From positions 32,001 through 96,000 of IMG/VR virus record IMGVR_UViG_3300007735_000798: a DNA stretch of 64,000 nucleotides, one strand, 5' to 3'. Source of the DNA: a virus. The translations under genes were made by a program, and so were the position numbers. A model generated the notes under the pieces. The model worked only from the letters and a program-made list of their open reading frames with translations. It was not told the DNA's origin and made no database searches. This document shows positions 10,120 through 64,000 of this stretch, piece after piece. Each line of letters starts with the position of its first letter. Position 1 is the stretch's first letter.

Positions 10120-12756
10120 TTATAACGCATTTAATGAAGCACGATTAACTCTTGATTCAATCATTCTTAAAATATTATCTGACTCTGTTGGCTGTGGAAG
10201 TGGCGGCCTTGAAGAAAAAACTACTTTTGTTTCAAACCCCTGATCTGAATAAGTAATATCTAATGAACTTAACCCCTCGGAAACAGATAAATTTAAATTA
10301 TCTGCTGGATTTCCCGCAAAAGTATATTCTATTTTTTTTGTTGGTTCTTTATTAACAATAGATTTTGCTAATTGTAATGGAACCTCTCTTGGCCTTGACC
10401 AAAAATCATCGGTTTCTGTAACATTATCATCAAATATATTTACAGTCGCTACGTTTTTATAATCCTTTAAAAATTTTTCATCGTCTAAATTATAATATAT
10501 TTTTTGATTATAATCTATCGGAGGTATAAATGTAATTTGGCGACGAGTAGTTGTAAAAGTTCGTATAGAACCAAAAGAAGGTGCACATAAAGTTACTGGT
10601 GGTTTTCCAAAAAAATTCATTTTTATAGCTTTAGATAAAGTACTATTTAAGCCAGTTCTATCATCTGCGCTTGAACTTTGAAGTGGTTCATTTTCACCAA
10701 GTTCTCTATAAGCAGCTGATGTTGCTTTTTTTCGAGCCTCATCCTCAAAATTTAAACATTTACCTTTATCTATTTGATCATCTAATAAATTACATTTTGG
10801 AAAACCATTTCCACCACCACCTTCAGCATCAGACCATTTTTTTTCTAAAGGATTTAGGCTCGTAGTTATTGTCCAATCAAAAGATTTATATTTCTTCCTA
10901 ATATAACTATACTTAGGAACTATAAATATCTGTGTTCCTGTTTTTATATTAGGAAACATTTGATTTAAGTTATTTTCTGCAATGTCAAGTTTTCTTACTA
11001 CAATATTATCTAATATTTCAGCTTTATCATCTTCATTTAAACCTATTAAGCCAAGAACTTGATTTGGATCATGGCTAAAATTTCCACCACGTTCGTACCA
11101 TTTTTTACCTTTGAATTCGCTACTTGGAGTTTCTATTCTTGTTGCTTCTGGGCTAGCGCTAGTACTTACTGTCATAAAAAATTTCGGAGTACAGATATAT
11201 GATGTAAAAGGTTGAGTACCTTGATAATAATAATATTTTCCATACAAATTTAAAATTTTTTGTTCAAGATCAAACCATGTTTTAGCCAAACCCTCAATTT
11301 CTACTCCAACCCAAAACCAAAATGCTTCTCCTGCAAATTTTTTTGGTTCACCAGCGTTATTTTTACCTACAAATTCTATTTCTAATTCTTTAATACGCTG
11401 TAATTCTGCATTATCTACTAAAAGATCATATATGTTATTTATTTCTTCTTGTTTTAAACGATATAAATAATTTTCTCCACGTTCAGATAGAGCGGCCCCA
11501 TAACTTAATTCTGGTTGTGGAGATCTTAATGTTACCCCCACATTTTTAAATACTTTATAACCAACTTTTTCCTTTAAAGATTCATTTCCCAATACTTCCC
11601 ATATTAAATTATATAAATATATTTCTCTTATTTCTGGACTAAAATATCCTAAAAACGCAGCACTTAAAAACTGATGTTCTTCTCTCCCGCCCCAAAGAGC
11701 AAGTTCTGCTGCTAAAGGATCATCAAAACCTTCTTGAACTTCTACAACCTCACCATTAGTGTTTTCATATAAAGAAACATTTTTATATTCATTTATTTTA
11801 TCTAAAGTTCCATCGTTTCTTAAAAAACGACTAATAGGGACCGCATGCATAAAATCATACGCAGATTCTTCAAACTCTCCAGTTTGTGTTCCCATAGGTT
11901 CTTTTGGTTTTTTTGTATAAGCCATTGCATAATTTATAAAAGTATTATCTAAAGAGCTACTTGCTGTTTTTGCAATCAATCTTGTACTTGTAATATCTGG
12001 TAATTGAAGTTTAATCCCCTCATTTAATACATAAGTCTTAATTTTATTATTTGTAAAGTCCCAATAAAATCCAATACCACAGGCTTCAGCCCAAGATTTT
12101 AAAACAGTTCTTAAAGACCCTTCTGTATTTTTCTTTAATTCTGGTGGGGCTGTAAAATCAACACCCTCTACAATATTATAGTTTTTTAGTATATTTTTTA
12201 AATTTTCTAATGTATAGTATGTTTCTGGAATATCGCATTCTGTTTTTGGAAAAGATTCTTTTCCAAGATAAATAATATTATTTTTTACACCGTAGGCTTC
12301 ATAAACTTTTTTTTGGACTTCTTGATTTTTTAATTTTACTAAAGTAAATGTTCCTATTTTTCGTGAATAAATAGGAACTACATCTTCGTTGTCAAACTCG
12401 ACAATTTTTTTTCTTAAAACTAAATTTCCATCAATTCCAAATTTACCACGCTCCCATTTTTTAACATAATATCTATCTAAAATAACACTATGGTCTTTAA
12501 TTTGTACTTCTAATATTTTATCTTGAAGAGTTTCTTTAATATCATAAGACCATATTATACCATTGAATGTAAAAGAACCAAAAGAAATTTTTATAGGTTC
12601 ATTTAATATCGGTAATGGATTATAATCACCATCTTTACTAATAATATTTAAGGTTAGAACGGATGGCTCCTCAGAATAACCAATTTCTAAATTTAATCCA
12701 TAAATTACCCCGCCAAAATTTGGGCCTTCTATTATTGGTACTTTTGAAATTTCCAT
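10120..12756 (-). CDS. Probable baseplate hub/tail tip (Tal-like) protein
   Basis: Position after the tape measure. N-terminal hub-like strands and LRTVLKSWAEACGIGFYWD. Confidence 0.5.
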   Translation of the reverse strand: MEISKVPIIEGPNFGGVIYGLNLEIGYSEEPSVLTLNIISKDGDYNPLPILNEPIKISFGSFTFNGIIWSYDIKETLQDKILEVQIKDHSVILDRYYVKKWERGKFGIDGNLVLRKKIVEFDNEDVVPIYSRKIGTFTLVKLKNQEVQKKVYEAYGVKNNIIYLGKESFPKTECDIPETYYTLENLKNILKNYNIVEGVDFTAPPELKKNTEGSLRTVLKSWAEACGIGFYWDFTNNKIKTYVLNEGIKLQLPDITSTRLIAKTASSSLDNTFINYAMAYTKKPKEPMGTQTGEFEESAYDFMHAVPISRFLRNDGTLDKINEYKNVSLYENTNGEVVEVQEGFDDPLAAELALWGGREEHQFLSAAFLGYFSPEIREIYLYNLIWEVLGNESLKEKVGYKVFKNVGVTLRSPQPELSYGAALSERGENYLYRLKQEEINNIYDLLVDNAELQRIKELEIEFVGKNNAGEPKKFAGEAFWFWVGVEIEGLAKTWFDLEQKILNLYGKYYYYQGTQPFTSYICTPKFFMTVSTSASPEATRIETPSSEFKGKKWYERGGNFSHDPNQVLGLIGLNEDDKAEILDNIVVRKLDIAENNLNQMFPNIKTGTQIFIVPKYSYIRKKYKSFDWTITTSLNPLEKKWSDAEGGGGNGFPKCNLLDDQIDKGKCLNFEDEARKKATSAAYRELGENEPLQSSSADDRTGLNSTLSKAIKMNFFGKPPVTLCAPSFGSIRTFTTTRRQITFIPPIDYNQKIYYNLDDEKFLKDYKNVATVNIFDDNVTETDDFWSRPREVPLQLAKSIVNKEPTKKIEYTFAGNPADNLNLSVSEGLSSLDITYSDQGFETKVVFSSRPPLPQPTESDNILRMIESRVNRASLNAL

Positions 12757-12795: not shown

Positions 12796-14700
12796 TTACA
12801 CAAAAAAATCTTCAGTATTATTATAAATTATATAATTATTTTTATTTTCATAAAAATCTCCAGAAAATAAATCAAAGTTACTATTTTCTACATAATTATT
12901 ATTTAATTTTTGTTTAATGCCATTCAAATAAACCTGTGAAGAAGTTTTATTTAAATTTTTTGTTTGTATTTTTAATGTTGATTCATTTCCCGTAATATTG
13001 TTTAAAGTTGGAATTGATTTAATATATACATAATTATTTCCAGAAGGTATATTTAAATTAAAAGTATTATTTCCAGTATAAGTTATTCCAGATATTAATT
13101 TTTGCCCATTAACAAATACAAATTTATTATTAAAATTTTTTCCAGCCAATTGCATTCCAGAATGAATTCCAGTAATAGATAAAAATTCAAAATCACCAGT
13201 AAATCCATCATAAAAAAGATCATCATTTCCATTTATAAGATTATTAACGTAAATTTCATTGCCAGTAATAAAATAGTCATTATTAGTTCTAATAAAAGTA
13301 TCATAACCAATTGTTTCTAAATAATATCCAGAATCTATAATAAGTTGACCATTACAAAATACTAATGTTCCAGAAGTTAAATTATTTTCAGTGGTAAAAT
13401 TATTTTTAATAAAATTAAAATTTAAATTTTTATTATAATTTAAATTTTTATCCTGATAAGATTCATAATATACTTCAACAATATCATTCTGTTTATTTAT
13501 TTCTGATAATAAAGAAATTTCGGAAAAAGATAATGATTCTAAATAATCTGTATCTTTAAAAAAGATACTCGCGCCAGTTTCTAAAAAAACTCCAGTACAA
13601 ATTTCTCCAGTAATATAAACTTGTTTTGATCCAGTAATTTGACCAGTTAAAGGTATTTGGTTATAACCAGTAAAAGAAATTATTCCAGTTTGTGGAAAAT
13701 TATATGAATAATTTATTGTAATTAATCCAGATAATGGTGTTTGACCATAAATTGCAGATGTGATATTACAGTTATTACTATAATATCCTAATAAAATATT
13801 ATTATACCCAGTAACGCCACTATATGAATAGCCAGTTACACCAGTTATATATCCAGTAATTCCAGTAATATTTAAATTAGAACTGTTTGTTAAAAATCCT
13901 GTTATTCCACTTGTTGAAAATCCAGATTCTATAAAATAACCAGTAGTATAACATGTATTTTGTATATATCCAAGTTTACCACTATAAATATGTAATATAC
14001 CGCTTACAATATATTGATTATAAAAAAATGGAATATTTTTAAATATAAAAAATTTATCTACATATCCACTAAAATTAGAACTATTATTAGCCCAATTTAT
14101 ATTTGGATATATCCCACCAAGAAATAATTGGTCAGATTGTTTAAATACATTATTTTTTATATAAAATGTTTCTGTTTCAAATGATAATGTATTATTATTT
14201 AAATTACCCATCGTTAATACATTATTATTGCGATTTATTATTATTAAATTTTTATTCGCTAAAATATTTGAAGCAGTAAAACTAAATACTCCTTCTACAT
14301 TATTCCAATATTTAAAATATAATTTATTAGCATTATTAACTCCAAGACAAAACCCAGAATATGTAGAAAAAGAATTTCCAGTAGCGGAAGAAAGTAAAAT
14401 TTCATCTCCAGTTCTTAATTTTTCATAAGAAAGTAATATCGTATCATTATCAAAAGTATAAGGAGCATTTAATTTCATTATTGTTGAACCATTAAAATAT
14501 CCAGTTCCACTATATTGAAAAAATGTACCAGTAGATCCAGTATTTAAAATACCAGAAAATGAATTTATAGCCCAATTATCTGGAGGTACAGTCTGATTAT
14601 TAATTAGTGATTTATTATAAAAACTAAAAGCAGCTGTAGCACTAGAAATTGGAACCCCAATCTGGTCTAAAAAATACGGCATTCCAGTAAAAAATATCAT
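12796..14700 (-). CDS. Tail protein, LamG/concanavalin-like N-terminus with TG repeats and VxxNG-K/Q-L repeats
   Basis: 634 aa; GFCLGVN..LFLGG..FSGYVD; ITGITGYITGVTG. Confidence 0.55.
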   Translation of the reverse strand: MIFFTGMPYFLDQIGVPISSATAAFSFYNKSLINNQTVPPDNWAINSFSGILNTGSTGTFFQYSGTGYFNGSTIMKLNAPYTFDNDTILLSYEKLRTGDEILLSSATGNSFSTYSGFCLGVNNANKLYFKYWNNVEGVFSFTASNILANKNLIIINRNNNVLTMGNLNNNTLSFETETFYIKNNVFKQSDQLFLGGIYPNINWANNSSNFSGYVDKFFIFKNIPFFYNQYIVSGILHIYSGKLGYIQNTCYTTGYFIESGFSTSGITGFLTNSSNLNITGITGYITGVTGYSYSGVTGYNNILLGYYSNNCNITSAIYGQTPLSGLITINYSYNFPQTGIISFTGYNQIPLTGQITGSKQVYITGEICTGVFLETGASIFFKDTDYLESLSFSEISLLSEINKQNDIVEVYYESYQDKNLNYNKNLNFNFIKNNFTTENNLTSGTLVFCNGQLIIDSGYYLETIGYDTFIRTNNDYFITGNEIYVNNLINGNDDLFYDGFTGDFEFLSITGIHSGMQLAGKNFNNKFVFVNGQKLISGITYTGNNTFNLNIPSGNNYVYIKSIPTLNNITGNESTLKIQTKNLNKTSSQVYLNGIKQKLNNNYVENSNFDLFSGDFYENKNNYIIYNNTEDFFV

Positions 14701-57276: not shown

Positions 57277-57343
57277 TATACCTCCTTTCCATACTATATA
57301 TTACAGCAAAAAAGGTGCCAAGATTGTTACAATATTGTCAAAT

Positions 57344-58678
57344 TTATCTAGTTTCGCGCCACTGCATTCCAGCAAGAACGTCTGTGGTATTTCCAGGCCC
57401 AGAAGCAAAATTTTTAAATACTATTGCAAATATATTACTGTCAGTACTATCAATATTTTGACTTATATAACCACGTTTGGCAGCAGATGCATCTGCAATA
57501 CTTGCAGTCCCAGCAGTTGTATTTCCAACCCCAATGCCGCCAGCTGTTAAAAATCCAACATCAAACATTAACCCCCCAGATGTACTATAACCAGTAGCAT
57601 TGATATTATATTCAATAACACTTGCATCATCAGCACTTACCCAAGATCCACCAATTAATGAAGCGCCACTAGGTAAACGCCAAAATTCATAACTACATAA
57701 TTGATCTTTACTATATAATTCTGTGCTACCAAGTCTTACAATACTACGATTTGGTTCGCCTTGGTATCCAGTTTTTAGTCTTATTGCCATAACTGGCATT
57801 GTATTACCAGCTGTTATATTTCTATAACCAGTACTTCTGATTGAGAAATCAACACCCGCTTCTTTATATCCACCTTCACTAATTACAGTGGCACAAATTT
57901 GATCCATCTGTCCACTACCAGTTGGAGCGCCATAATTTCTAAGTTCACACCGTATTGGTAAATTAGGATTACTCCAGTATACATTATCTTTTATATTACT
58001 ATTATAAAATTGATGAGCAACAATAAGCTGCCCTTCGTGGACAAATCCAGCGCGAACAGTTCCTACTCCAAGCCACTCATAATCTGCATAAAATAATTGC
58101 GTTTTAGTTGTATCTAAATTAAAATATGAAGGGGCCGCGCCATTACATTTATCATTATTCCATTGTGATTGTGGAATAATATCATCATAAGTATATCCAG
58201 AAACACTACTTCTAAGAATCATTGATAGAGTACCATCGCCACTTTGTTGAAAAAATATTCCATTTTTGTCATCAAATAGTCCAACACTTTTATTTGTTCC
58301 AGAACGCGGCGCGCGAAAATTAAAACTTTGAAAACTTAATTGACTTTTTCCAGGCATGTAGTGGTGATACATACGACTTTGATGTATGACAAAATCATTA
58401 CTTCCACTACCTATATTTAAAACTGCTTTAGCTTTTTTAATATCAAAAGATATTGAAGAAATATTACCACTAGTTTTAGTTAATAATTCTGTTTCTTCTC
58501 CATAAACATGGCTATAATCGGCAAGAGTGAACGGGTCACTCGTTCTCATGCGACCAAATGCATCAATTAAAACTGGTTGTAGTGTTGCAGATAAACTGGG
58601 ATTTACAATATTAACATTTACTGGAGTATTTCCACCTTCTTGTTCTATCTGTGTGATATTTGTTATCATGCGTATCAA
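57344..58678 (-). CDS. Conserved phage structural/lectin-like protein
   Basis: IDAFGRMRTSDP..QSRMYHHYMPGKS..DYEWLGVGTVRAG..PNLPIRCE; the start may be the ATG at 58669. Confidence 0.6.
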   Translation of the reverse strand: MIRMITNITQIEQEGGNTPVNVNIVNPSLSATLQPVLIDAFGRMRTSDPFTLADYSHVYGEETELLTKTSGNISSISFDIKKAKAVLNIGSGSNDFVIHQSRMYHHYMPGKSQLSFQSFNFRAPRSGTNKSVGLFDDKNGIFFQQSGDGTLSMILRSSVSGYTYDDIIPQSQWNNDKCNGAAPSYFNLDTTKTQLFYADYEWLGVGTVRAGFVHEGQLIVAHQFYNSNIKDNVYWSNPNLPIRCELRNYGAPTGSGQMDQICATVISEGGYKEAGVDFSIRSTGYRNITAGNTMPVMAIRLKTGYQGEPNRSIVRLGSTELYSKDQLCSYEFWRLPSGASLIGGSWVSADDASVIEYNINATGYSTSGGLMFDVGFLTAGGIGVGNTTAGTASIADASAAKRGYISQNIDSTDSNIFAIVFKNFASGPGNTTDVLAGMQWRETR

Positions 58679-58699
58679 TTATCATATTACACGCGAATT

Positions 58700-59100
58700 A
58701 TCTAGTTAGGATTAAATTAAAATTATAGGAAAAATACCCTCCACCGATTTTTTTATTTTGATTCTTTTATTATTTATTCATTTACTCTTAAAGTTTTAGA
58801 AATGGGTAGGGGGGTATACATATACAAATACAGAGAAATCTATACATTATTACTAGAATATATATAGAAAGAATATATGAATAAGAGCGATTAAATTTAA
58901 ATTAATTAATATAAATTATTCTCTTTCTATAATATATAGAATAGAATATATTATAATAGAATGGGTTAAAATAAAGATATTAAAATAAATATTCAGGAGA
59001 TTGAAAATGGACCCCTCCCCCACCCTAAAATTAAAACACTCGTTCGTTTTTTTCAAAAAGTGGGGGGGGACTAGGCTTTTTAAACAAAAAAAAGTTCAAA
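58700..59100. other. Non-coding divergence region with G/C homopolymer tracts (candidate genome terminus/pac/origin)
   Basis: No ORF; AT-rich with TACCCTCCACC, GGGTAGGGGGGTATAC, CCCCTCCCCCACCC, GTGGGGGGGG; coincides with the strand and composition switch. Confidence 0.4.
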
Positions 59101-59117
59101 AATCTTAAAAAAATCCC

Positions 59118-59145
59118 TTGCTTTTTGGCGCATCTGTGGTATCTT
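59118..59145 (+). promoter_or_regulatory. Extended -10 sigma70 promoter, leaderless
   Basis: TTGCTT-16nt(..TGG)-TATCTT-6nt-ATG. Confidence 0.85.
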
Positions 59146-59151
59146 GTATAC

Positions 59152-59442
59152 ATGAAAGATAAACAAAACCAATTCACCAAAGGAAGCGTGTATCGCTTCG
59201 ATTACCTGTCTCGCATGGGACGCTTCCACTACCAGAACGTGCGATTCGCTCGCTACGTTGGCCCCTTCAAGTTTGAAGGCAAATACACTTGGAGCGACGA
59301 CTCCATCCCTGCTGGGAACTACTCGTTCGTCAACGAGAACAACGAACCTGTCCAGATCGTTGACTGGATGGTTAACGAAAAGACCGCACAGGTCGAAACC
59401 TTCGGCAAAAACGAAAGGAACTTCCTGCGTCAAGACTGGTAA
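59152..59442 (+). CDS. Early hypothetical protein (96 aa)
   Basis: ATG 6 nt after the -10 box; MKDKQNQF.. Confidence 0.8.
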   Translation: MKDKQNQFTKGSVYRFDYLSRMGRFHYQNVRFARYVGPFKFEGKYTWSDDSIPAGNYSFVNENNEPVQIVDWMVNEKTAQVETFGKNERNFLRQDW

Positions 59443-59451
59443 AAAAATCCC

Positions 59452-59479
59452 TTGACTTTCTCCACATCTCTGATATCCT
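59452..59479 (+). promoter_or_regulatory. Extended -10 sigma70 promoter, leaderless
   Basis: TTGACT-16nt(..TGA)-TATCCT-6nt-ATG. Confidence 0.85.
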
Positions 59480-59485
59480 ACTAAC

Positions 59486-59716
59486 ATGAACACATACGAA
59501 AAACACATCACTCACAACGGAAGCGAATACTATCTCTGCACAGAGTATGCGTTCGATCACACCGACACTCTGCAAGTCTCTGACTTTACGCTGACCGATG
59601 AGGACGGCGAAGAAATCACGCAAGAGGCTTTCGAGGCTGACAAGGCTCTCTATGAGCGTGTCTGCGAAATCCTCGCAAACGAGGACGCTGTCTGCTATGG
59701 CGGCGCGCCTTGCTAA
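59486..59716 (+). CDS. Early acidic hypothetical protein (76 aa)
   Basis: 18 D/E vs 3 K/R; own promoter. Confidence 0.8.
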   Translation: MNTYEKHITHNGSEYYLCTEYAFDHTDTLQVSDFTLTDEDGEEITQEAFEADKALYERVCEILANEDAVCYGGAPC

Positions 59717-59748
59717 TTCAAACACTCGTTTCAAATACTCGTTTCAAT

Positions 59749-59823
59749 ATGCTAACACACGCTGCCGAAATCCTAACAGCCATTCTCATATTCGTCCTAG
59801 GCTTTGCCTTGCTCTGTATATAA
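59749..59823 (+). CDS. 24-aa hydrophobic micro-protein
   Basis: MLTHAAEILTAILIFVLGFALLCI*; its TAA is the first 3 nt of repeat element 1. Confidence 0.45.
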   Translation: MLTHAAEILTAILIFVLGFALLCI

Positions 59824-59895
59824 GCCGTTGATAATCAACAGGTTACGACGGGGCGCCCCGCCGCGCGACGCAAGTCCTTGGTAATCAGCGACTTA
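59821..59895 (+). repeat. 75-bp double-palindrome element 1 (IHF-consensus sites)
   Basis: TAAGCCGTTGATAATCAACAGGTTA / 25-nt GC spacer / CAAGTCCTTGGTAATCAGCGACTTA. Confidence 0.9.
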
Positions 59896-59981
59896 CACAA
59901 ACACACATTCAGAAAGCGTGCCAACTCACAAAACTTTTTTCTATCAACAAAAAAAACTTTCAACAACCGCAAAAAAATCTC

Positions 59982-60009
59982 TTGCTTTTTCCGTGCGCTG
60001 TGCTATTCT
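59982..60009 (+). promoter_or_regulatory. Extended -10 sigma70 promoter, leaderless
   Basis: TTGCTT-16nt(..TGC)-TATTCT-6nt-ATG. Confidence 0.85.
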
Positions 60010-60015
60010 ATATCC

Positions 60016-60234
60016 ATGTTCAAGATCAGATACCAACTCATCCACAATCGTGGCTGCGAAACAGTCACCATCCAAAACCGCTCGGTCAAGCGCGCCATGC
60101 GTATGGCACGCACCCAAGCGTGGGATCAATACGCGCAATCGGGCGCGACTAACTGGGCCGATGTGTGGCTCACCATCACCAACCCCTACGGCAAGGTCGT
60201 CTATGCGGACTTTGCTCCGTCATCAGCGATCTGA
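60016..60234 (+). CDS. Early hypothetical protein (72 aa)
   Basis: MFKIRYQLIH..; own promoter. Confidence 0.8.
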   Translation: MFKIRYQLIHNRGCETVTIQNRSVKRAMRMARTQAWDQYAQSGATNWADVWLTITNPYGKVVYADFAPSSAI

Positions 60235-60242
60235 AAAATCGC

Positions 60243-60270
60243 TTGACTTTTCTCTTTCTTCTGCTATCCT
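60243..60270 (+). promoter_or_regulatory. Extended -10 sigma70 promoter, leaderless
   Basis: TTGACT-16nt(..TGC)-TATCCT-6nt-ATG. Confidence 0.85.
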
Positions 60271-60276
60271 TTAATC

Positions 60277-60651
60277 ATGAACAACGAAAACACCACATTC
60301 AACTTCAACGGAACCATCTGCAAGCTCGTCATCTCGGAGGACTTCGATGGTGACTGCACGAAACTTTGGCACGAACTCGTCAGCGTCGAGACTGGTAAGA
60401 CCATCGCCACCCTCGACTGGTCGCCTTACTCTGTGCCCTCTGATGCGGAGGTCGAGCAACTTATCAGCCTTGGGGAAGTGATCCTCGGAGAATTCCACTT
60501 GCCCTGTGGTTTGCGTTTTGCTAACTCTCACCCGCTCTCACGCTTCAACTTCGACAGCAAGATGCTCGCCGCTTTTTTTGCTGGTGTTTACGGGGAAACT
60601 GTTGGCAAACTTGAACTTGTGTTCAGTGTGCGCCCTACCTTGGCCGCATAA
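60277..60651 (+). CDS. Early hypothetical protein (124 aa)
   Basis: Own promoter. Confidence 0.8.
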   Translation: MNNENTTFNFNGTICKLVISEDFDGDCTKLWHELVSVETGKTIATLDWSPYSVPSDAEVEQLISLGEVILGEFHLPCGLRFANSHPLSRFNFDSKMLAAFFAGVYGETVGKLELVFSVRPTLAA

Positions 60652-60680
60652 AAAAACTTTCACAATCGCAAAAAAAATCC

Positions 60681-60709
60681 TTGCGTTTTCTCTCAACCTG
60701 TTCTATTCT
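60681..60709 (+). promoter_or_regulatory. sigma70 promoter, leaderless
   Basis: TTGCGT-17nt-TATTCT-6nt-ATG. Confidence 0.8.
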
Positions 60710-60715
60710 TTAACC

Positions 60716-60934
60716 ATGAAAGACATCGACACCTACATCACCAACGCCCACTCCGACGATTTCGCCACGGAGGCGGAGGAGCGCGCCACCCTCAACACGT
60801 TCGCGGCAGAGCCTGCCGTCGAGCAGGAACCCGAACCGCAACCCTACGATGGGTACGAGGGCCATTGGGCGGGGGATGGGTCGGGCATGGACGACCTCGC
60901 GGACTGGGGCGAGCAGGAGGGCTGGGACAACTAG
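60716..60934 (+). CDS. Early, very acidic hypothetical protein (72 aa)
   Basis: MKDIDTY..GWDN; 20 D/E vs 2 K/R. Confidence 0.8.
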   Translation: MKDIDTYITNAHSDDFATEAEERATLNTFAAEPAVEQEPEPQPYDGYEGHWAGDGSGMDDLADWGEQEGWDN

Positions 60935-60945
60935 CCCAAACAATT

Positions 60946-60978
60946 CAAACGCCTGTTTCAAACGGGCGTTTGTTTTTT
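60946..60978 (+). terminator. Probable rho-independent terminator
   Basis: CAAACGCCTG-TTTCAAA-CGGGCGTTTG followed by T6. Confidence 0.6.
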
Positions 60979-60997
60979 GCCCAAATTCCAAGTTGCG

Positions 60998-61072
60998 TAA
61001 GTCCTTGATATTCAACCACTTGCATTGGCGCGCGGGGCGTGCGCGCGTAAGTCCTTGATAATGAACGACTTA
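60998..61072 (-). repeat. 75-bp double-palindrome element 2 (inverted orientation)
   Basis: TAAGTCCTTGATATTCAACCACTTG / CATTGGCGCGCGGGGCGTGCGCGCG / TAAGTCCTTGATAATGAACGACTTA. Confidence 0.9.
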
Positions 61073-61163
61073 CGTGATGGCTTGCGAACCCGCATAAATA
61101 CTGGCTTCGCGGGTGTCAAGCTTTTTTTGCAAAAAAAATTTTGCGTAATCGCAAAAAAATCCC

Positions 61164-61191
61164 TTGCTTTTTTGCAGTCCCGTGCTATTCT
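61164..61191 (+). promoter_or_regulatory. Extended -10 sigma70 promoter, leaderless
   Basis: TTGCTT-16nt(..TGC)-TATTCT-6nt-ATG. Confidence 0.85.
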
Positions 61192-61197
61192 TTAAGC

Positions 61198-61383
61198 ATG
61201 AAAAAGAAATACTACACCAAAGCGGAAATCGTGGAATTCGCCACGAAAAACAAAGCCACTTGCACGCACGCATCGTTGGCTTTCAGTTCGTTCATCTTCA
61301 CCAACCGCGTTGGTCGCACTTGCAAGGTTGCGTTTGATCGCGTGGATCATGGCGTTTGGCAGAAAAAAATCTTGAAAAAATAA
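61198..61383 (+). CDS. Early basic protein (61 aa), paralog of 63341..63523
   Basis: MKKKYYT..NKA.CT..V.F.RVD..VW.KKI. Confidence 0.8.
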   Translation: MKKKYYTKAEIVEFATKNKATCTHASLAFSSFIFTNRVGRTCKVAFDRVDHGVWQKKILKK

Positions 61384-61384
61384 C

Positions 61385-61412
61385 TTGACTTTTCCCGCAT
61401 CTCTGGTAGATT
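61385..61412 (+). promoter_or_regulatory. Extended -10 sigma70 promoter, leaderless
   Basis: TTGACT-16nt(..TGG)-TAGATT-6nt-ATG. Confidence 0.85.
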
Positions 61413-61418
61413 GTAAGT

Positions 61419-61592
61419 ATGAAAAACGGATACACTAAAAGCTGGCGCGCTAAAGAGCGCGTCGAAACTCTCGACCTTCCTCTCGCGGAGGACAACGATC
61501 ACCCTGTTTGGGTGAAGCGTCCTAAAGACGCTTTCGAGCGTGAACTGGAGCGGTTGAACCGCGAAGAAAAGCGTAACCGCTGGTCACGCTAA
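61419..61592 (+). CDS. Early hypothetical protein (57 aa, not in ORF track)
   Basis: MKNGYTKSWRAKERVETLDLPLAEDNDHPVWVKRPKDAFERELERLNREEKRNRWSR*. Confidence 0.75.
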   Translation: MKNGYTKSWRAKERVETLDLPLAEDNDHPVWVKRPKDAFERELERLNREEKRNRWSR

Positions 61593-61620
61593 AGCTTGTC
61601 AAGCAAAAAAGTGTTCAGCG

Positions 61621-61695
61621 TAAACCACTGAACATCAAGCGCTTACGACGGCGCGCCCCGCCGCGCGGCGTAACCCGTTGAAAATCAAGCACTTA
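61621..61695 (+). repeat. 75-bp double-palindrome element 3
   Basis: TAAACCACTGAACATCAAGCGCTTA / CGACGGCGCGCCCCGCCGCGCGGCG / TAACCCGTTGAAAATCAAGCACTTA. Confidence 0.9.
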
Positions 61696-61780
61696 TGCAA
61701 AGCGCCGTTCAGAAAGCGTGCCAACTTCAGAAATTTTTTTTCTTCAACAAAAAAACTTTAGAAAATCGAAAAGATTTTCA

Positions 61781-61808
61781 TTGCTTTTTGCGCGTTCTGT
61801 GATATGCT
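61781..61808 (+). promoter_or_regulatory. Extended -10 sigma70 promoter, leaderless
   Basis: TTGCTT-16nt(..TGA)-TATGCT-6nt-ATG. Confidence 0.85.
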
Positions 61809-61814
61809 GTATGT

Positions 61815-62087
61815 ATGAAAAAAGAAATCACCACAATCGAACAAGCAAAGAAACTCTCCGTCTTGGAGTTCATGGATTTGTCCACTCTGGAACGCAAACT
61901 TCTGGATGAACTGAAGCGCGTTGAATCGCAGGTTGAACTGCTCCAGACTTGGCTGGACAACGCTAACCAGTCGTGCGAAACCTTGCGCAAAGCACGCGAC
62001 AACTATCGCAGACAGCTTGGCATCTCGTCCGATTGGGACACGATGGAATCTGTCCGCGACAAATACGATGCCAGACATGGCGGATAA
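61815..62087 (+). CDS. Early coiled-coil protein (90 aa)
   Basis: Own promoter; heptad pattern. Confidence 0.8.
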   Translation: MKKEITTIEQAKKLSVLEFMDLSTLERKLLDELKRVESQVELLQTWLDNANQSCETLRKARDNYRRQLGISSDWDTMESVRDKYDARHGG

Positions 62088-62093
62088 AATCGC

Positions 62094-62121
62094 TTGACTC
62101 TCACCATCTTTCTGCTATTCT
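62094..62121 (+). promoter_or_regulatory. Extended -10 sigma70 promoter, leaderless
   Basis: TTGACT-16nt(..TGC)-TATTCT-6nt-ATG. Confidence 0.85.
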
Positions 62122-62127
62122 AAAGAC

Positions 62128-62376
62128 ATGAAAAACACCATCACCAAACACGAACTTAACGATCACCTTTGCCACGCTCGCGTTGCTCTGGTTCTTCAGA
62201 GCCGCGAACTCTACAAACGCCGCAATGGGTTTTGCGGAAAATCCTTCCGCCAAACTCTGCGCGACAACATCCGCGCCTTGCGCGTGTTGAGCAATCTCAA
62301 CACCATCGAAGCGACTCTCTACTCGTCGTTCGCATCGCCCAAAGTAGGCAAAGCCGAAAAAATTCTCGGCTTGTAA
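62128..62376 (+). CDS. Early hypothetical protein (82 aa)
   Basis: Own promoter. Confidence 0.8.
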   Translation: MKNTITKHELNDHLCHARVALVLQSRELYKRRNGFCGKSFRQTLRDNIRALRVLSNLNTIEATLYSSFASPKVGKAEKILGL

Positions 62377-62382
62377 AATCGC

Positions 62383-62410
62383 TTGACTCTCACCATCTTT
62401 CTGCTATCAT
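62383..62410 (+). promoter_or_regulatory. Extended -10 sigma70 promoter, (near-)leaderless
   Basis: TTGACT-16nt(..TGC)-TATCAT-7nt-ATG; 34 bp identical to the preceding promoter region. Confidence 0.85.
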
Positions 62411-62417
62411 CACTTTT

Positions 62418-62588
62418 ATGAAAAAAGAAAAACTGAACCAACACCTCGTCGAAATCTTCCGCGCGATTGATCGGCTCAATCACGCAATCGGCAACGGGAA
62501 GATGCCGAAACTCGACAAGGGACAAAAAATCGTCCTGCGTTCGGCACTCATCACGCTCGACAACATCGCACTAGAGGGACTGCAATAA
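62418..62588 (+). CDS. Early hypothetical protein (56 aa)
   Basis: MKKEKLNQHL..; own promoter. Confidence 0.75.
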   Translation: MKKEKLNQHLVEIFRAIDRLNHAIGNGKMPKLDKGQKIVLRSALITLDNIALEGLQ

Positions 62589-62818
62589 TGTCACAAAACG
62601 AAAACATCATGAAGTCGCTTCACGCTCTCGCAAAGCATGAGGTTGCCATGCAAGCGCAGGAGGCGGAAATCGTCGAACTGAAAAATCTTTTGTCTCGCGC
62701 CTTGCACACCATCACCATGCACGAGCACAAACTCAATCTTTTGTGTGGCGTTTCTACCACGCTTGCGGTAGAGTTGCACAAAGTTAAAAATAACCAAATC
62801 ACATTCGGAGTAAACTAA
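62588..62818 (+). CDS. Early coiled-coil protein (76 aa)
   Basis: TAATG coupling with the upstream gene; GAGGG SD-like. Confidence 0.75.
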   Translation: MSQNENIMKSLHALAKHEVAMQAQEAEIVELKNLLSRALHTITMHEHKLNLLCGVSTTLAVELHKVKNNQITFGVN

Positions 62819-62819
62819 C

Positions 62820-62984
62820 ATGAAAACACAATTGTTCTCACCCTTGATGCTGGAAAGCGCGGAAGAAAATCTGCGCAAAGAATACGAAAAAAAACTTGGT
62901 CGCTTGCCCCTGTGGTGGTATCCTTGCGCTTTCATTGCTTTTGCAATCCCAATCGTCACTCTAACTCTAATCATATTCACATGA
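62820..62984 (+). CDS. 54-aa protein with C-terminal TM helix (not in ORF track)
   Basis: MKTQLFSP..LWWYPCAFIAFAIPIVTLTLIIFT*; GGAG upstream; ATGA overlap downstream. Confidence 0.7.
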   Translation: MKTQLFSPLMLESAEENLRKEYEKKLGRLPLWWYPCAFIAFAIPIVTLTLIIFT

Positions 62985-63136
62985 GCAAAATCATCATGAC
63001 CATCGACACGCGACCGCTCGCGCGCGCGATTGAGCGCAGTGTTCGCAAGACCACTTGCCGTCCTTCATTCGCCATGCGTGTCAAGAAAAAATTCACGCGC
63101 AAGGCAAAGTTTTTTCGCGGTTGGTCTGACGAGTAA
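62981..63136 (+). CDS. Basic 51-aa protein
   Basis: MSKIIMTIDT..GWSDE*; its stop codon is the first 3 nt of element 4. Confidence 0.7.
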   Translation: MSKIIMTIDTRPLARAIERSVRKTTCRPSFAMRVKKKFTRKAKFFRGWSDE

Positions 63137-63208
63137 AGCGTTGAATATCAACGACTTACGGCGGCGCGCCCCGCCGCGCGACCTAAGTGCTTGAAAATCA
63201 ACGACTTA
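63134..63208 (+). repeat. 75-bp double-palindrome element 4
   Basis: TAAAGCGTTGAATATCAACGACTTA / CGGCGGCGCGCCCCGCCGCGCGACC / TAAGTGCTTGAAAATCAACGACTTA. Confidence 0.9.
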
Positions 63209-63306
63209 CGCAAAGCGCCGTTCAAGAAGTGTGCCAAGTTGCGGAACAAAACGCTCGTTTGAAAAATCATCAACAGAAAAAAGTTACGGAACCGCAAAAA
63301 AATCCC

Positions 63307-63334
63307 TTGCTTTTTCGCAGTCTTGTGGTAGAGT
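63307..63334 (+). promoter_or_regulatory. Extended -10 sigma70 promoter, leaderless
   Basis: TTGCTT-16nt(..TGG)-TAGAGT-6nt-ATG. Confidence 0.85.
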
Positions 63335-63340
63335 GTATAC

Positions 63341-63523
63341 ATGAAAAAGAAATACTACACCACGACAGACATCAATGCCTACGCTCTCCGCAACAAAGCG
63401 GTTTGCACATTCGGAGGTTTGAACCTTCGCGTGTTCAAGGGTTGGACTGCGAAAGGTTCTTACGAGGTGAAATTCCACCGCGTTGACGCTCTCGTGTGGG
63501 AGAAAAAAATCGTAAGAAAATAG
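63341..63523 (+). CDS. Early basic protein (60 aa), paralog of 61198..61383
   Basis: Conserved ends, divergent middle. Confidence 0.8.
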   Translation: MKKKYYTTTDINAYALRNKAVCTFGGLNLRVFKGWTAKGSYEVKFHRVDALVWEKKIVRK

Positions 63524-63524
63524 C

Positions 63525-63552
63525 TTGACTTTTCCCGCATCTCTGATATCTT
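63525..63552 (+). promoter_or_regulatory. Extended -10 sigma70 promoter, leaderless
   Basis: TTGACT-16nt(..TGA)-TATCTT-6nt-ATG. Confidence 0.85.
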
Positions 63553-63558
63553 AAAAGC

Positions 63559-63774
63559 ATGAAAAATAAAAACACCACTCCTCAACCGAAAGTCGGACAA
63601 CTCTGGAGAGTCGCCACTGGCGAACGCAAAGGCGGTTACACTCTCGTCCGCGTCACCGAAATCATCGGCACTCTGGCTTGTGTTCGCACTCACGAAAACA
63701 AACGCGGCCACATCCTGCTGGACTACCTACATCCCGCCTCGAAAGAGGACATTCAAAACTATCTGAAAAAATAG
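63559..63774 (+). CDS. Early SH3-like small beta protein (71 aa)
   Basis: PKVGQLWR..VRVTEI. Confidence 0.75.
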   Translation: MKNKNTTPQPKVGQLWRVATGERKGGYTLVRVTEIIGTLACVRTHENKRGHILLDYLHPASKEDIQNYLKK

Positions 63775-63775
63775 T

Positions 63776-63803
63776 TTGACTCTCTCCACATCTCTGATAC
63801 TCT
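63776..63803 (+). promoter_or_regulatory. Extended -10 sigma70 promoter, leaderless
   Basis: TTGACT-16nt(..TGA)-TACTCT-6nt-ATG. Confidence 0.85.
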
Positions 63804-63809
63804 AAAAGC

Positions 63810-64000
63810 ATGACAACCTACAACGAACAAAAGTGCTACACGGCAAAGGTGAAAAACCATCTCACGAACAAAACGAAATTTTTCGATGTGTTCGCGCCGT
63901 CGATCAGCAAGGCAATCCTGCTCGCTGAAGAACTCGGCTCCTTGTTCTTCTGCACGGCAAGCGTCGAGTGCATCGCCTGTGGCCTCAATCGCTTGGGCAA
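63810..64000 (+). CDS. Early hypothetical protein, 3'-truncated
   Basis: MTTYNEQKCYTAKVKNHL.. open to the window end. Confidence 0.75.
   Translation, partial: MTTYNEQKCYTAKVKNHLTNKTKFFDVFAPSISKAILLAEELGSLFFCTASVECIACGLNRLG

Follow-up and report, generated by a model that had tools for sequence, protein, structure and literature searches.

A 75-bp Repeat of Paired IHF-Type Palindromes Is a Candidate Boundary Element in the Early-Gene Arrays of Large Uncultured Freshwater Phages

In T4-type phages, the promoter-early stem-loop (PeSL) unites an early promoter with a terminator stem-loop, and recombination between its copies reshuffles modules (PMC2839356, PMC4122927). In Escherichia coli, the RIB/RIP (BIME-1) elements, as attributed to Boccard and Prentki (1993) in PMC3333891, place an integration host factor (IHF) site between two REP sequences at the 3′ ends of transcription units. 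The binding site of IHF itself has the consensus WATCAANNNNTTR, with a core named as CA and TT (PMC10380432). Here, we describe a phage repeat that has features of each of these systems, and we consider which protein may bind it and what it may do.

The stretch of DNA that we analyzed (64,000 nucleotides, herein referred to as the window) belongs to a 104.7-kb viral contig with 11 copies of a 75-bp element, four of which lie inside the window (table 1), the edge of which cuts the array. A literature search for such repeats did not find a published description. All 11 copies are located within an early-gene block of 46–50% GC, the remainder of the phage having a GC content of 25–33%. The carriers of the element form a family of large uncultured freshwater phages, and the complete related phages (166–178 kb) each have 10–14 copies, confined to one GC-rich block of ~15 kb. 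A chimeric assembly behind the jump in GC content was ruled out, as the same structural gene lies beside the same GC-rich array in independently sampled relatives; independent runs also span the GC junction (two runs labeled RNA-Seq are probably DNA and contributed short contigs only). A host repeat family was likewise ruled out, four short MAG contigs being the only match among 185,579 species genomes. Annotated phages gave no blastn match and protein searches recovered distant cultured relatives only; judged by the markers seen (a distant large terminase and a 2964-aa tape measure), the phage is not a T4-type myovirus.

An earlier note on this DNA had described four elements, each made of a 25-bp palindrome, a 25-bp GC-rich spacer, and a second 25-bp palindrome. 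We recovered this layout at all four positions, together with the exactly seven half-sites identical to WATCAANNNNTTR and the half-site with at most one mismatch that the note had reported for every palindrome. Indeed, these seven are the only exact matches between 59000 and 64000 and all fall within elements, compared with 0.13 in composition-matched shuffles. Each palindrome is a mirrored IHF-type site (YAA-N4-TTGA-WWW-TCAA-N4-TTR), and the two sites of an element are kept exactly 50 bp apart by the GC core. Each core has an A/T-rich center and an opposed core on its 5′ side. The site is symmetric, unlike lambda H′, canonical IHF sites being asymmetric with an A/T-rich tract 5′ of the core. 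The GC core between the palindromes, GCGCCCCGCC, is conserved and asymmetric. Copy 2 is inverted, such that the spacer core appears as GCGGGGCG and the exact IHF matches are found on the minus strand; this inversion is kept in three relatives (G003, G004, and G005). The note had assigned to each element a pair of co-oriented sites, but across the family the best-conserved arms are the inner pair that flanks the spacer and not the two co-oriented right arms.

Table 1. Coordinates of the elements and neighboring features, in positions of the window.
Feature	Position	Strand	Remarks
GC-rich (46–50%) early-gene array, window part	59000..64000	+	Continues to contig end (genome 91–104.7 kb), with seven more copies
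Element copy 1	59821..59895	+	P1 59821–59845, GC spacer 59846–59870, P2 59871–59895; PWM score 98
Element copy 2, inverted	60998..61072	-	Spacer core on + strand is GCGGGGCG
Element copy 3	61621..61695	+	25/25/25 layout
Element copy 4	63134..63208	+	Initial TAA doubles as stop codon of the family-3 gene (51 aa; 62981–63136)
Sigma54-like -24/-12 box (TGGCACGCTTTCTGA)	59909..59923	-	13 nt from copy 1 edge, directed into copy 1
Sigma54-like box beside copy 3	61709..61723	-	
Sigma54-like box beside copy 4	63222..63236	-	
Intrinsic terminator, 12-bp stem then T-run	60946..60972	+	Sole strong plus-strand terminator in array; directly before inverted copy 2
First sigma70-like promoter after copy 1	59982..60018	+	TTGCTT -35, TATTCT -10; leaderless ATG at 60016
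First promoter after copy 2	61164..61200	+	ATG at 61198
First promoter after copy 3	61781..61817	+	ATG at 61815
First promoter after copy 4	63307..63343	+	ATG at 63341

Conservation was assessed over 85 diverged copies (>8 of 75 positions different) drawn from many contigs, all of which align gap-free at a fixed length of 75 bp. Columns A2, T9, A17, T23, T24, A52, A53, T59, A67, and T74 are invariant, and positions 25 and 75 are a purine in 100% of copies, as WATCAANNNNTTR requires. The invariant or near-invariant positions T15 C16 A17 A18 ... T23 T24 R25, with their mirror images, are the positions of the IHF consensus, and the N4 columns are variable. The core TCAA-N4-TTR is found in the right arm of P1 in 70 of the 85 copies and in the left arm of P2 in 64. 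This coincidence of conserved columns and consensus strengthens the reading of the palindromes as IHF-consensus sites, binding by IHF being predicted from it. Several conserved positions fall outside the consensus, namely A21 (A in 87%), C22 (C in 79%), C26, and G27, and in one lineage N4 has switched from CGAC to CGAG in all arms together; this concerted change and the extra conserved positions fit a more specific binder or gene conversion.

The elements close modules on their 3′ side. In 28 of 84 copies, the stop codon of the preceding gene falls between -5 and +8 relative to the first position of the element, and in most of the others it is within 150 nt. Almost all are co-oriented with transcription (60 of 65), and a canonical terminator occurs within 90 nt in only 9 of the 60 co-oriented copies. 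No promoter lies within the element. The earlier note had placed each element 85–98 nt upstream of the next -35, with A-tracts in between, and this is correct for the window (86, 91, 85, and 98 nt) but not for the family, in which the next promoter may be anywhere between 9 and 310 bp away. The 85–98 nt spacing is therefore a feature of a subclass, and neither helical phasing nor a fixed distance to the next promoter was found across copies. The suggestion that the elements are IHF-dependent promoter activators acting at that distance does not generalize, since the distance is variable and unphased and the location of the elements instead follows where the preceding unit ends (3′).

We tentatively hypothesize that the 75-bp element forms a boundary and that a host protein of the IHF type binds it, an interpretation that we place just short of probable. 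The element would act as double-stranded DNA on which a protein docks, the likeliest binder being host IHF or a bending protein of the IHF/HU type. The footprint of IHF is ~35 bp, and two dimers with such footprints could sit side by side, leaving ~15 bp of the GC core between them. With two sharp bends at a set separation, the DNA would then adopt a rigid nucleoprotein fold wherever an early module ends (3′). This fold may act as a boundary between neighboring modules, which are strongly transcribed and have no ordinary terminators, either by blocking the elongating polymerase, by limiting the diffusion of supercoils, or in both ways. About one-third of the copies also adjoin a sigma54-type promoter that would fire toward and into the element. 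The repeats could, as a side effect, serve as patches of homology where related phages gain, lose, and reorder modules. The boundary function is suggested by the position of the elements and the missing terminators, as opposed to transcript ends. In a bolder version, which we consider decidedly unlikely, the element would be a host-built double U-turn of fixed geometry that replaces terminators: two IHF-type dimers on the mirrored sites would form a chiral knot that blocks or insulates rightward early transcription in one orientation only, and in the subclass with sigma54 boxes would also offer a platform for activator-gated leftward antisense transcripts through the early modules toward the late genes, such that one repeat would be both a terminator and an early-to-late switch.

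That the binder is a host protein is suggested by the distribution of the element. No HU/IHF (PF00216) protein is encoded in the phages searched, and the element is present in lineages (L026 and L010) that have none of the small early protein families 0–17, which together point to a binder encoded outside the array. The sigma54-like boxes, along with a strict sigma54 consensus match at 57305 in a proper intergenic setting, suggest a host that has sigma54, a classical partner of IHF. Several features count against the IHF-type reading: the 50-bp spacing is a non-integral number of helical turns, positions 21–22 and the GC core are conserved past the known needs of IHF, and N4 has changed in concert in one lineage. 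Mirror symmetry is also unusual for an IHF site, the canonical ones being asymmetric.

The palindromes could instead be operators of a non-IHF, sequence-specific dimeric regulator of phage or host origin that binds all copies and thereby shuts off or blocks early transcription. We consider this reading unlikely, although it would accommodate the conserved A21, C22, C26, G27, and GC core, the concerted N4 change in one lineage, and the strong orientation bias relative to transcription, and it has a precedent in the stoperators, which are numerous intergenic repressor sites that halt elongation (PMC9283540). A candidate regulator would be family 3, a 51-aa basic protein (~90% conserved) whose gene abuts an element and whose AlphaFold model, of low confidence, is compatible with a ribbon-helix-helix fold. 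However, no HTH or RHH domain was detected in ten small early proteins, and searches of ~20 array proteins against Pfam, PHROGs, and a protein atlas returned only GP88 and a weak Ogg-HhH match. The divergent lineages that retain the element without families 0–17 lack family 3 among them, and the invariant columns correspond to the IHF core as opposed to a lineage-specific code. An integrase is also absent, and hence nothing hints at the repressor system of a temperate phage.

A very improbable alternative is that the element is an enhancer for a sigma54-dependent promoter, in which an activator on the palindromes would drive the neighboring box leftward to make antisense or late transcripts. 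Elements of the subclass with 85–98 nt promoter spacing do have a sigma54-like -24/-12 box aimed at them; this box, TGGCA(C/T)-N5-(C/T/A)TG(C/A), is separated from the edge of the element by exactly 13 nt in 49 unique copies and occurs almost nowhere else in the arrays. These 49 copies were picked by TGCCAA at +23 and the set is defined by its -24 box (TGGCA then C/T). Compared with the sigma54 promoter consensus (GG-N10-GC, with TGGCAC and TTGC), every one of the 49 has a fitting spacing and keeps TG at -14/-13. The strict match at 57305 favors sigma54 usage as well, and reliance on host sigma54 is precedented by phage YuA, which depends on it (PMC5053324). However, only 27 of the 85 elements, about one-third, have the box, its -12 position is A instead of C in about half of the picked copies, and, relative to the predicted start, the element is placed downstream and not upstream. 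A search of the phage genes for a sigma54 enhancer-binding AAA+ activator (PF00158) found none, the hits in the phage being the clamp loader only.

Whole modules, consisting of genes plus element, have been gained and lost between genomes at the elements. In G001, one element combines the left flank of copy 4 of G000 with the right flank of its copy 8, and in a variant contig the joint falls exactly at 63208. Joints also occur between repeated promoters (62084 to 62374, 61390 to 62403, and 59119 to 61363), and no tyrosine or serine recombinase (PF00589, PF00239) was found in five genomes, three of them complete. The earlier note had raised recombination sites for block shuffling and had asked whether breaks in synteny map to the elements. 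Modules do swap there and breakpoints do coincide with elements, but breakpoints also occur at repeated promoters, and the recombination of these promoters together with the absence of a recombinase indicates ordinary homologous exchange. It is therefore extremely unlikely that the elements are site-specific recombination sites akin to integron attC that capture and shuffle cassettes; the presence or absence of gene-plus-element units, the hybrid element of G001, and the joint at 63208 would suit such a site, but the 3-bp center seen here is unsuited to a crossover region of 6–8 bp and the cassettes bring their own promoters. As a swap point for homologous exchange, the element explains the shuffling of ORFan early modules in these phages.

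The palindromes are not under selection for pairing. In a hairpin model, 75.8% of cells are paired versus 76.4% in shuffles, and RNAalifold predicted 0 pairs; in a model that pairs P1 with P2, the value is 71.4% versus 72.7 ± 0.5, with compensatory cells more numerous in 500 of 500 shuffles. Pairing at the RNA level, for which the earlier note had looked to covariation, is thus excluded as a selected feature, as is pairing of DNA, and arm complementarity that is not above chance, with P1–P2 pairing below chance, argues for a double-stranded protein site and not a hairpin. We give hardly any credence to a hairpin or cruciform (an RNA terminator, processing site or stabilizer, or an extruded DNA structure), a reading largely refuted even though the elements are located at 3′ ends and single copies fold stably when single stranded (-20 to -29.5 kcal/mol, with z as low as -4.98), because covariation is absent in both models, roughly half of the cells are unpaired at stem positions 4–7, no U-run follows the element in the flanks inspected, and the z-scores are uneven (-1.1 to -5.0).

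Large uncultured freshwater phages are known almost solely from sequence, and an element that is kept across many phage contigs provides a concrete experimental handle on how they organize early transcription, in the form of a 75-bp DNA that can be synthesized. If the boundary element is indeed bound by host IHF, these phages would build terminator-free boundaries from a nucleoid protein of the host, and the element would help in host prediction by pointing to a host in which IHF and sigma54 are both needed.

Among known systems, integron attC sites are conserved in structure and variable in length and have the partner tyrosine recombinase IntI nearby, whereas the element is conserved in sequence, fixed at 75 bp and without covariation, and no such partner is encoded in five genomes. 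The stoperators of cluster A mycobacteriophages (PMC9283540) resemble it as many copies of one protein site that lie in short intergenic gaps and are oriented with transcription; they differ in that they are 13–14 bp long, asymmetric, distributed genome-wide, and bound by the known repressor of a temperate phage. Canonical IHF sites such as lambda H′ (PMC10380432) share the core letters, spacing, and invariant positions of the element, whose sites, in contrast, are mirrored, with two opposed cores that overlap, occur in pairs at 50 bp, and have extra conserved positions, binding to them being putative. RIB/RIP, in the form in which PMC3333891 presents it, is likewise a dispersed intergenic repeat, located at the 3′ ends of transcription units, in which GC-rich palindromic DNA and an IHF consensus occur together. 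The layout is reversed, with two IHF-type palindromes around a GC core here and two GC-rich REPs around one IHF site in RIB/RIP; moreover, the element is phage-borne, with no repeat family among the 185,579 species genomes, whereas RIB/RIP is chromosomal. Compared with PeSL, the element contains no promoter, shows neither selection for stems in its palindromes nor a U-run, and has a fixed length of 75 bp with 9–310 bp to the next promoter. The two are alike in being short, conserved regulatory repeats that lie among small early ORFan genes, within a plastic part of the genome of a large lytic phage, and in involving strong promoters of the sigma70 type. In both, recombination between copies inserts, deletes, and reorders modules, and the promoter repeats do the same here.

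The 75-bp element, in which two 25-bp palindromes (P1 and P2, each made of two half-sites) flank a 25-bp GC spacer, is real and conserved, and no description of it was found in the searchable literature. We read it as a protein-docking module that works as double-stranded DNA where early-gene modules end on their 3' side, and we infer a boundary or insulator function; the likeliest binder is a host protein of the IHF type, an assignment about as apt to be right as wrong. The positions and 25/25/25 layout proposed in the earlier note hold at all four sites in the window (see table), as do its counts of seven half-sites identical to WATCAANNNNTTR and of a half-site with at most one mismatch in every palindrome. 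Indeed, all seven exact WATCAANNNNTTR matches in 59000–64000 lie inside elements (shuffles give 0.13). The second copy is inverted with respect to the other three, as is seen from its spacer core, which reads GCGGGGCG.

Elements and other features of the contig (window positions unless marked L130, the locus of this contig)
Feature	Position (strand)	Detail
Element copy 1	59821	25-bp palindrome / 25-bp GC spacer / 25-bp palindrome
Element copy 2	60998	same layout; inverted
Element copy 3	61621	same layout
Element copy 4	63134	same layout
Strong terminator	60946–60972	
Family 3 gene	62981–63136	51-aa protein
Degenerate left P1 arm pairing with upstream flank	61590–61635; L130:10256–10270; L130:10725–10748	three copies
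Strict sigma54 consensus	57305–57320 (-)	TGGCACCTTTTTTGCT
Further strict sigma54 matches	31612 (+); 37892 (-)	expected in AT-rich part, 0.07
Virion-protein gene replacement	57346–58730	27 nt replace entire 441-aa gene (phrog_1645)
AT-rich islands	L130 ~10340–10700; ~13860–14010	repeated CTATTTA motifs
GP88 protein	L130:11401–12075	224 aa; Pfam GP88 (E = 1e-40), phrog_1617
tRNA-Trp and tRNA-Lys	L130:14014–14161 (genome 102014–102161)	just past an element

The source contig (IMG/VR; 104,736 bp, judged 69% complete), of which the window covers bases 32001–96000, is mostly 25–33% GC and codes for a tailed phage, with a large terminase and a 2964-aa tape measure protein among its markers and a phrog_1645 virion protein that is encoded on the minus strand and reaches 58669, the gene of which is replaced in the variant from one independent freshwater run. 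From about window position 59000 to the contig end (L130:3000–16736) GC stands at 46–50%, a contrast with the phage genome that is kept in relatives; the early genes may match the host in composition, being expressed ahead of the phage tRNAs. The genes of this block are small and on the plus strand, and all 11 elements of the contig lie in it, 10 of them co-oriented. A search with the element pattern returned 35 loci among viral contigs, many of which share a contig with relatives of the adjacent structural gene, and the complete, terminally repeated genomes of relatives (166.5 and 178.5 kb) have one ~15-kb block of 45–52% GC with 10–14 copies; these rule out an assembly artefact as the source of the block. 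About nine studies have metagenomes (freshwater, river and lake) that contain near-identical DNA, and the closest cultured phages are distant relatives only. Nearly every small gene in 59100–64000 has a sigma70-like promoter of its own, of either a post-element (CGCAAAAAAATCCCTTGCTTTTT) or an internal (AAAATCGCTTGACT) class; since the -10 (TAnnnT) sits 6–7 nt before the ATG and these genes are without a Shine-Dalgarno sequence, their mRNAs look leaderless. The array also includes two tRNA genes, a GP88 protein (one of the few array products assigned to any family) and AT-rich islands, found as well in the divergent locus L010, that may represent a further kind of promoter or iteron.

From 116 unique copies we retained 85 that mutually differ at more than 8 of the 75 positions, and these align with zero gaps, so that element length is strictly constrained. 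Ten columns are invariant (A2, T9, A17, T23, T24, A52, A53, T59, A67, T74), positions 25 and 75 are purines and position 51 a pyrimidine in all 85 copies, and position 1 is a pyrimidine in 83; the variable columns are 4–7, 19–22 and their mirror images. The resulting profile, YAA-N4-TTGA / TCAA-N4-TTR, reads as the IHF core, the key letters of which are CA and TT (PMC10380432). Conservation is highest in the two inner arms flanking the spacer, and the spacer core (G35 C36 C37 C38 C39 G40 C41) is both conserved and asymmetric, which gives the element its polarity.

Several observations bear on the binder. The phages encode no HU/IHF protein, no DNA-binding domain is recognisable in about 20 array proteins, and the divergent lineages (loci L026 and L010) keep the element with early-protein families 0–17 absent within the loci fetched. 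Nor was the element found as a host repeat family in any of 185,579 species genomes, where matches came from just four short MAG contigs in three phyla that look like mis-binned phage fragments. Together these make a factor from the host more likely, and the sequence letters point to IHF. The IHF footprint is ~35 bp; an IHF-type dimer with its centre at position 13 would cover about -4 to 30 and one at position 63 about 46 to 80, leaving free about 15 bp that would correspond to the conserved GC core. A specific regulator, rather than pure IHF, binding the palindromes stays a serious rival, because A21, C22, C26, G27 and the GC core are conserved beyond what IHF is known to need, the four variable positions of the half-sites (N4) are altered in all arms together in one lineage, and the IHF-type sites here are mirrored, an arrangement unusual for IHF. 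One candidate lead for such a regulator is family 3, a strongly basic protein with about 90% identity between genomes, whose gene is in every case the one nearest before an element (the TAA of copy 4 serves as its stop codon); its low-confidence predicted fold, an extended N-terminus and two helices, is compatible with ribbon-helix-helix.

The suggestion that the elements are sites for block shuffling stands in part. Protein-level maps resolve the arrays into conserved modules, each ending in an element, and gene-plus-element units are gained or lost as wholes (family 30 is present in this contig, G000, and in the compared phage genome G004; families 40 and 41 in G003 and G005). One G001 element combines the left flank of G000 copy 4 with the right flank of copy 8, and a variant contig from an independent run has its join exactly at 63208. 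However, repeated promoters recombine too (joints 62084->62374, 61390->62403 and 59119->61363 in the same independent runs), and the phages encode no tyrosine or serine recombinase genes. Exchange is homologous, at repeats, as shown for the PeSLs of T4-type phages (PMC2839356, PMC4122927), and not the work of a dedicated site-specific system.

Base pairing, as hairpin or RNA stem, is ruled out as the selected feature, since the covariation check raised earlier placed neither hairpin model above shuffles. A two-hairpin model pairs 75.8% of cells versus 76.4% in column shuffles (450 of 500 as high), and RNAalifold predicts zero pairs on the element alignment. Single copies folded alone prefer a long hairpin; that model pairs 71.4% of cells versus 72.7 ± 0.5 in shuffles, all 500 of which hold more compensatory cells than observed, and columns 19 and 57 pair in just 18 of 85 copies. 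The inner half-sites (columns 19–20 and 56–57) tend to differ, one CG-type and one GC-type, with complementarity below chance, which may stem from ancestry or from selection that disfavours a long inverted repeat; such a repeat seems to be avoided. It follows that the element works as duplex DNA.

Of the 65 copies in six arrays, 60 point the same way as the genes. In 28 of 84 copies the stop codon of the upstream gene falls between -5 and +8 relative to the start of the element, and in 14 of those 28 it is the element's first TAA; some elements in relatives start directly at tRNA 3' ends. A canonical plus-strand terminator lies within 90 nt of just 9 of 60 co-oriented copies; the sole strong terminator of this array precedes the inverted copy. 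The reported promoter spacing of 85–98 nt is right for the window copies (86, 91, 85 and 98 nt to the next -35, with A-tracts between) but describes only a subclass with a conserved 3' extension: family-wide, the downstream gap to the next promoter varies between 9 and 310 bp with no fixed geometry, and unique element-promoter distances lack 10.5-bp phasing (R = 0.03, p = 0.97). At three copies the degenerate left P1 arm pairs with the upstream flank into a minus-strand hairpin followed by a T-run just past the element, a putative terminator for leftward transcripts that is the 'TGTCAAG plus A-run' motif read in reverse.

Exactly 13 nt from the element edge, 27 of the 85 representative copies (49 unique sequences) have a minus-strand TTGGCA(C/T)-N5-(C/T/A)TG(C/A) box with sigma54 promoter spacing and -24 box, the -12 being A, not C, in about half of the copies. 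The predicted start is ~2 nt before the element, which transcription would enter in the antisense direction relative to the upstream module. Outside element flanks, boxes of this kind are nearly absent; the strict consensus match at 57305 is intergenic, lying between late genes, with GGAGG and then the start codon (ATG) of a 78-aa gene after it, and has an equivalent in G004. No sigma54 activator was found among the phage genes (PF00158 matches are the clamp loader), and use of host sigma54 by phages is rare but known, as in YuA (PMC5053324).

Among known systems, the element is a member neither of the PeSL cassettes, the closest in organisation and shuffling, nor of E. coli RIB/BIME-1 (PMC3333891), the closest in combining GC palindromes and an IHF site at 3' ends.
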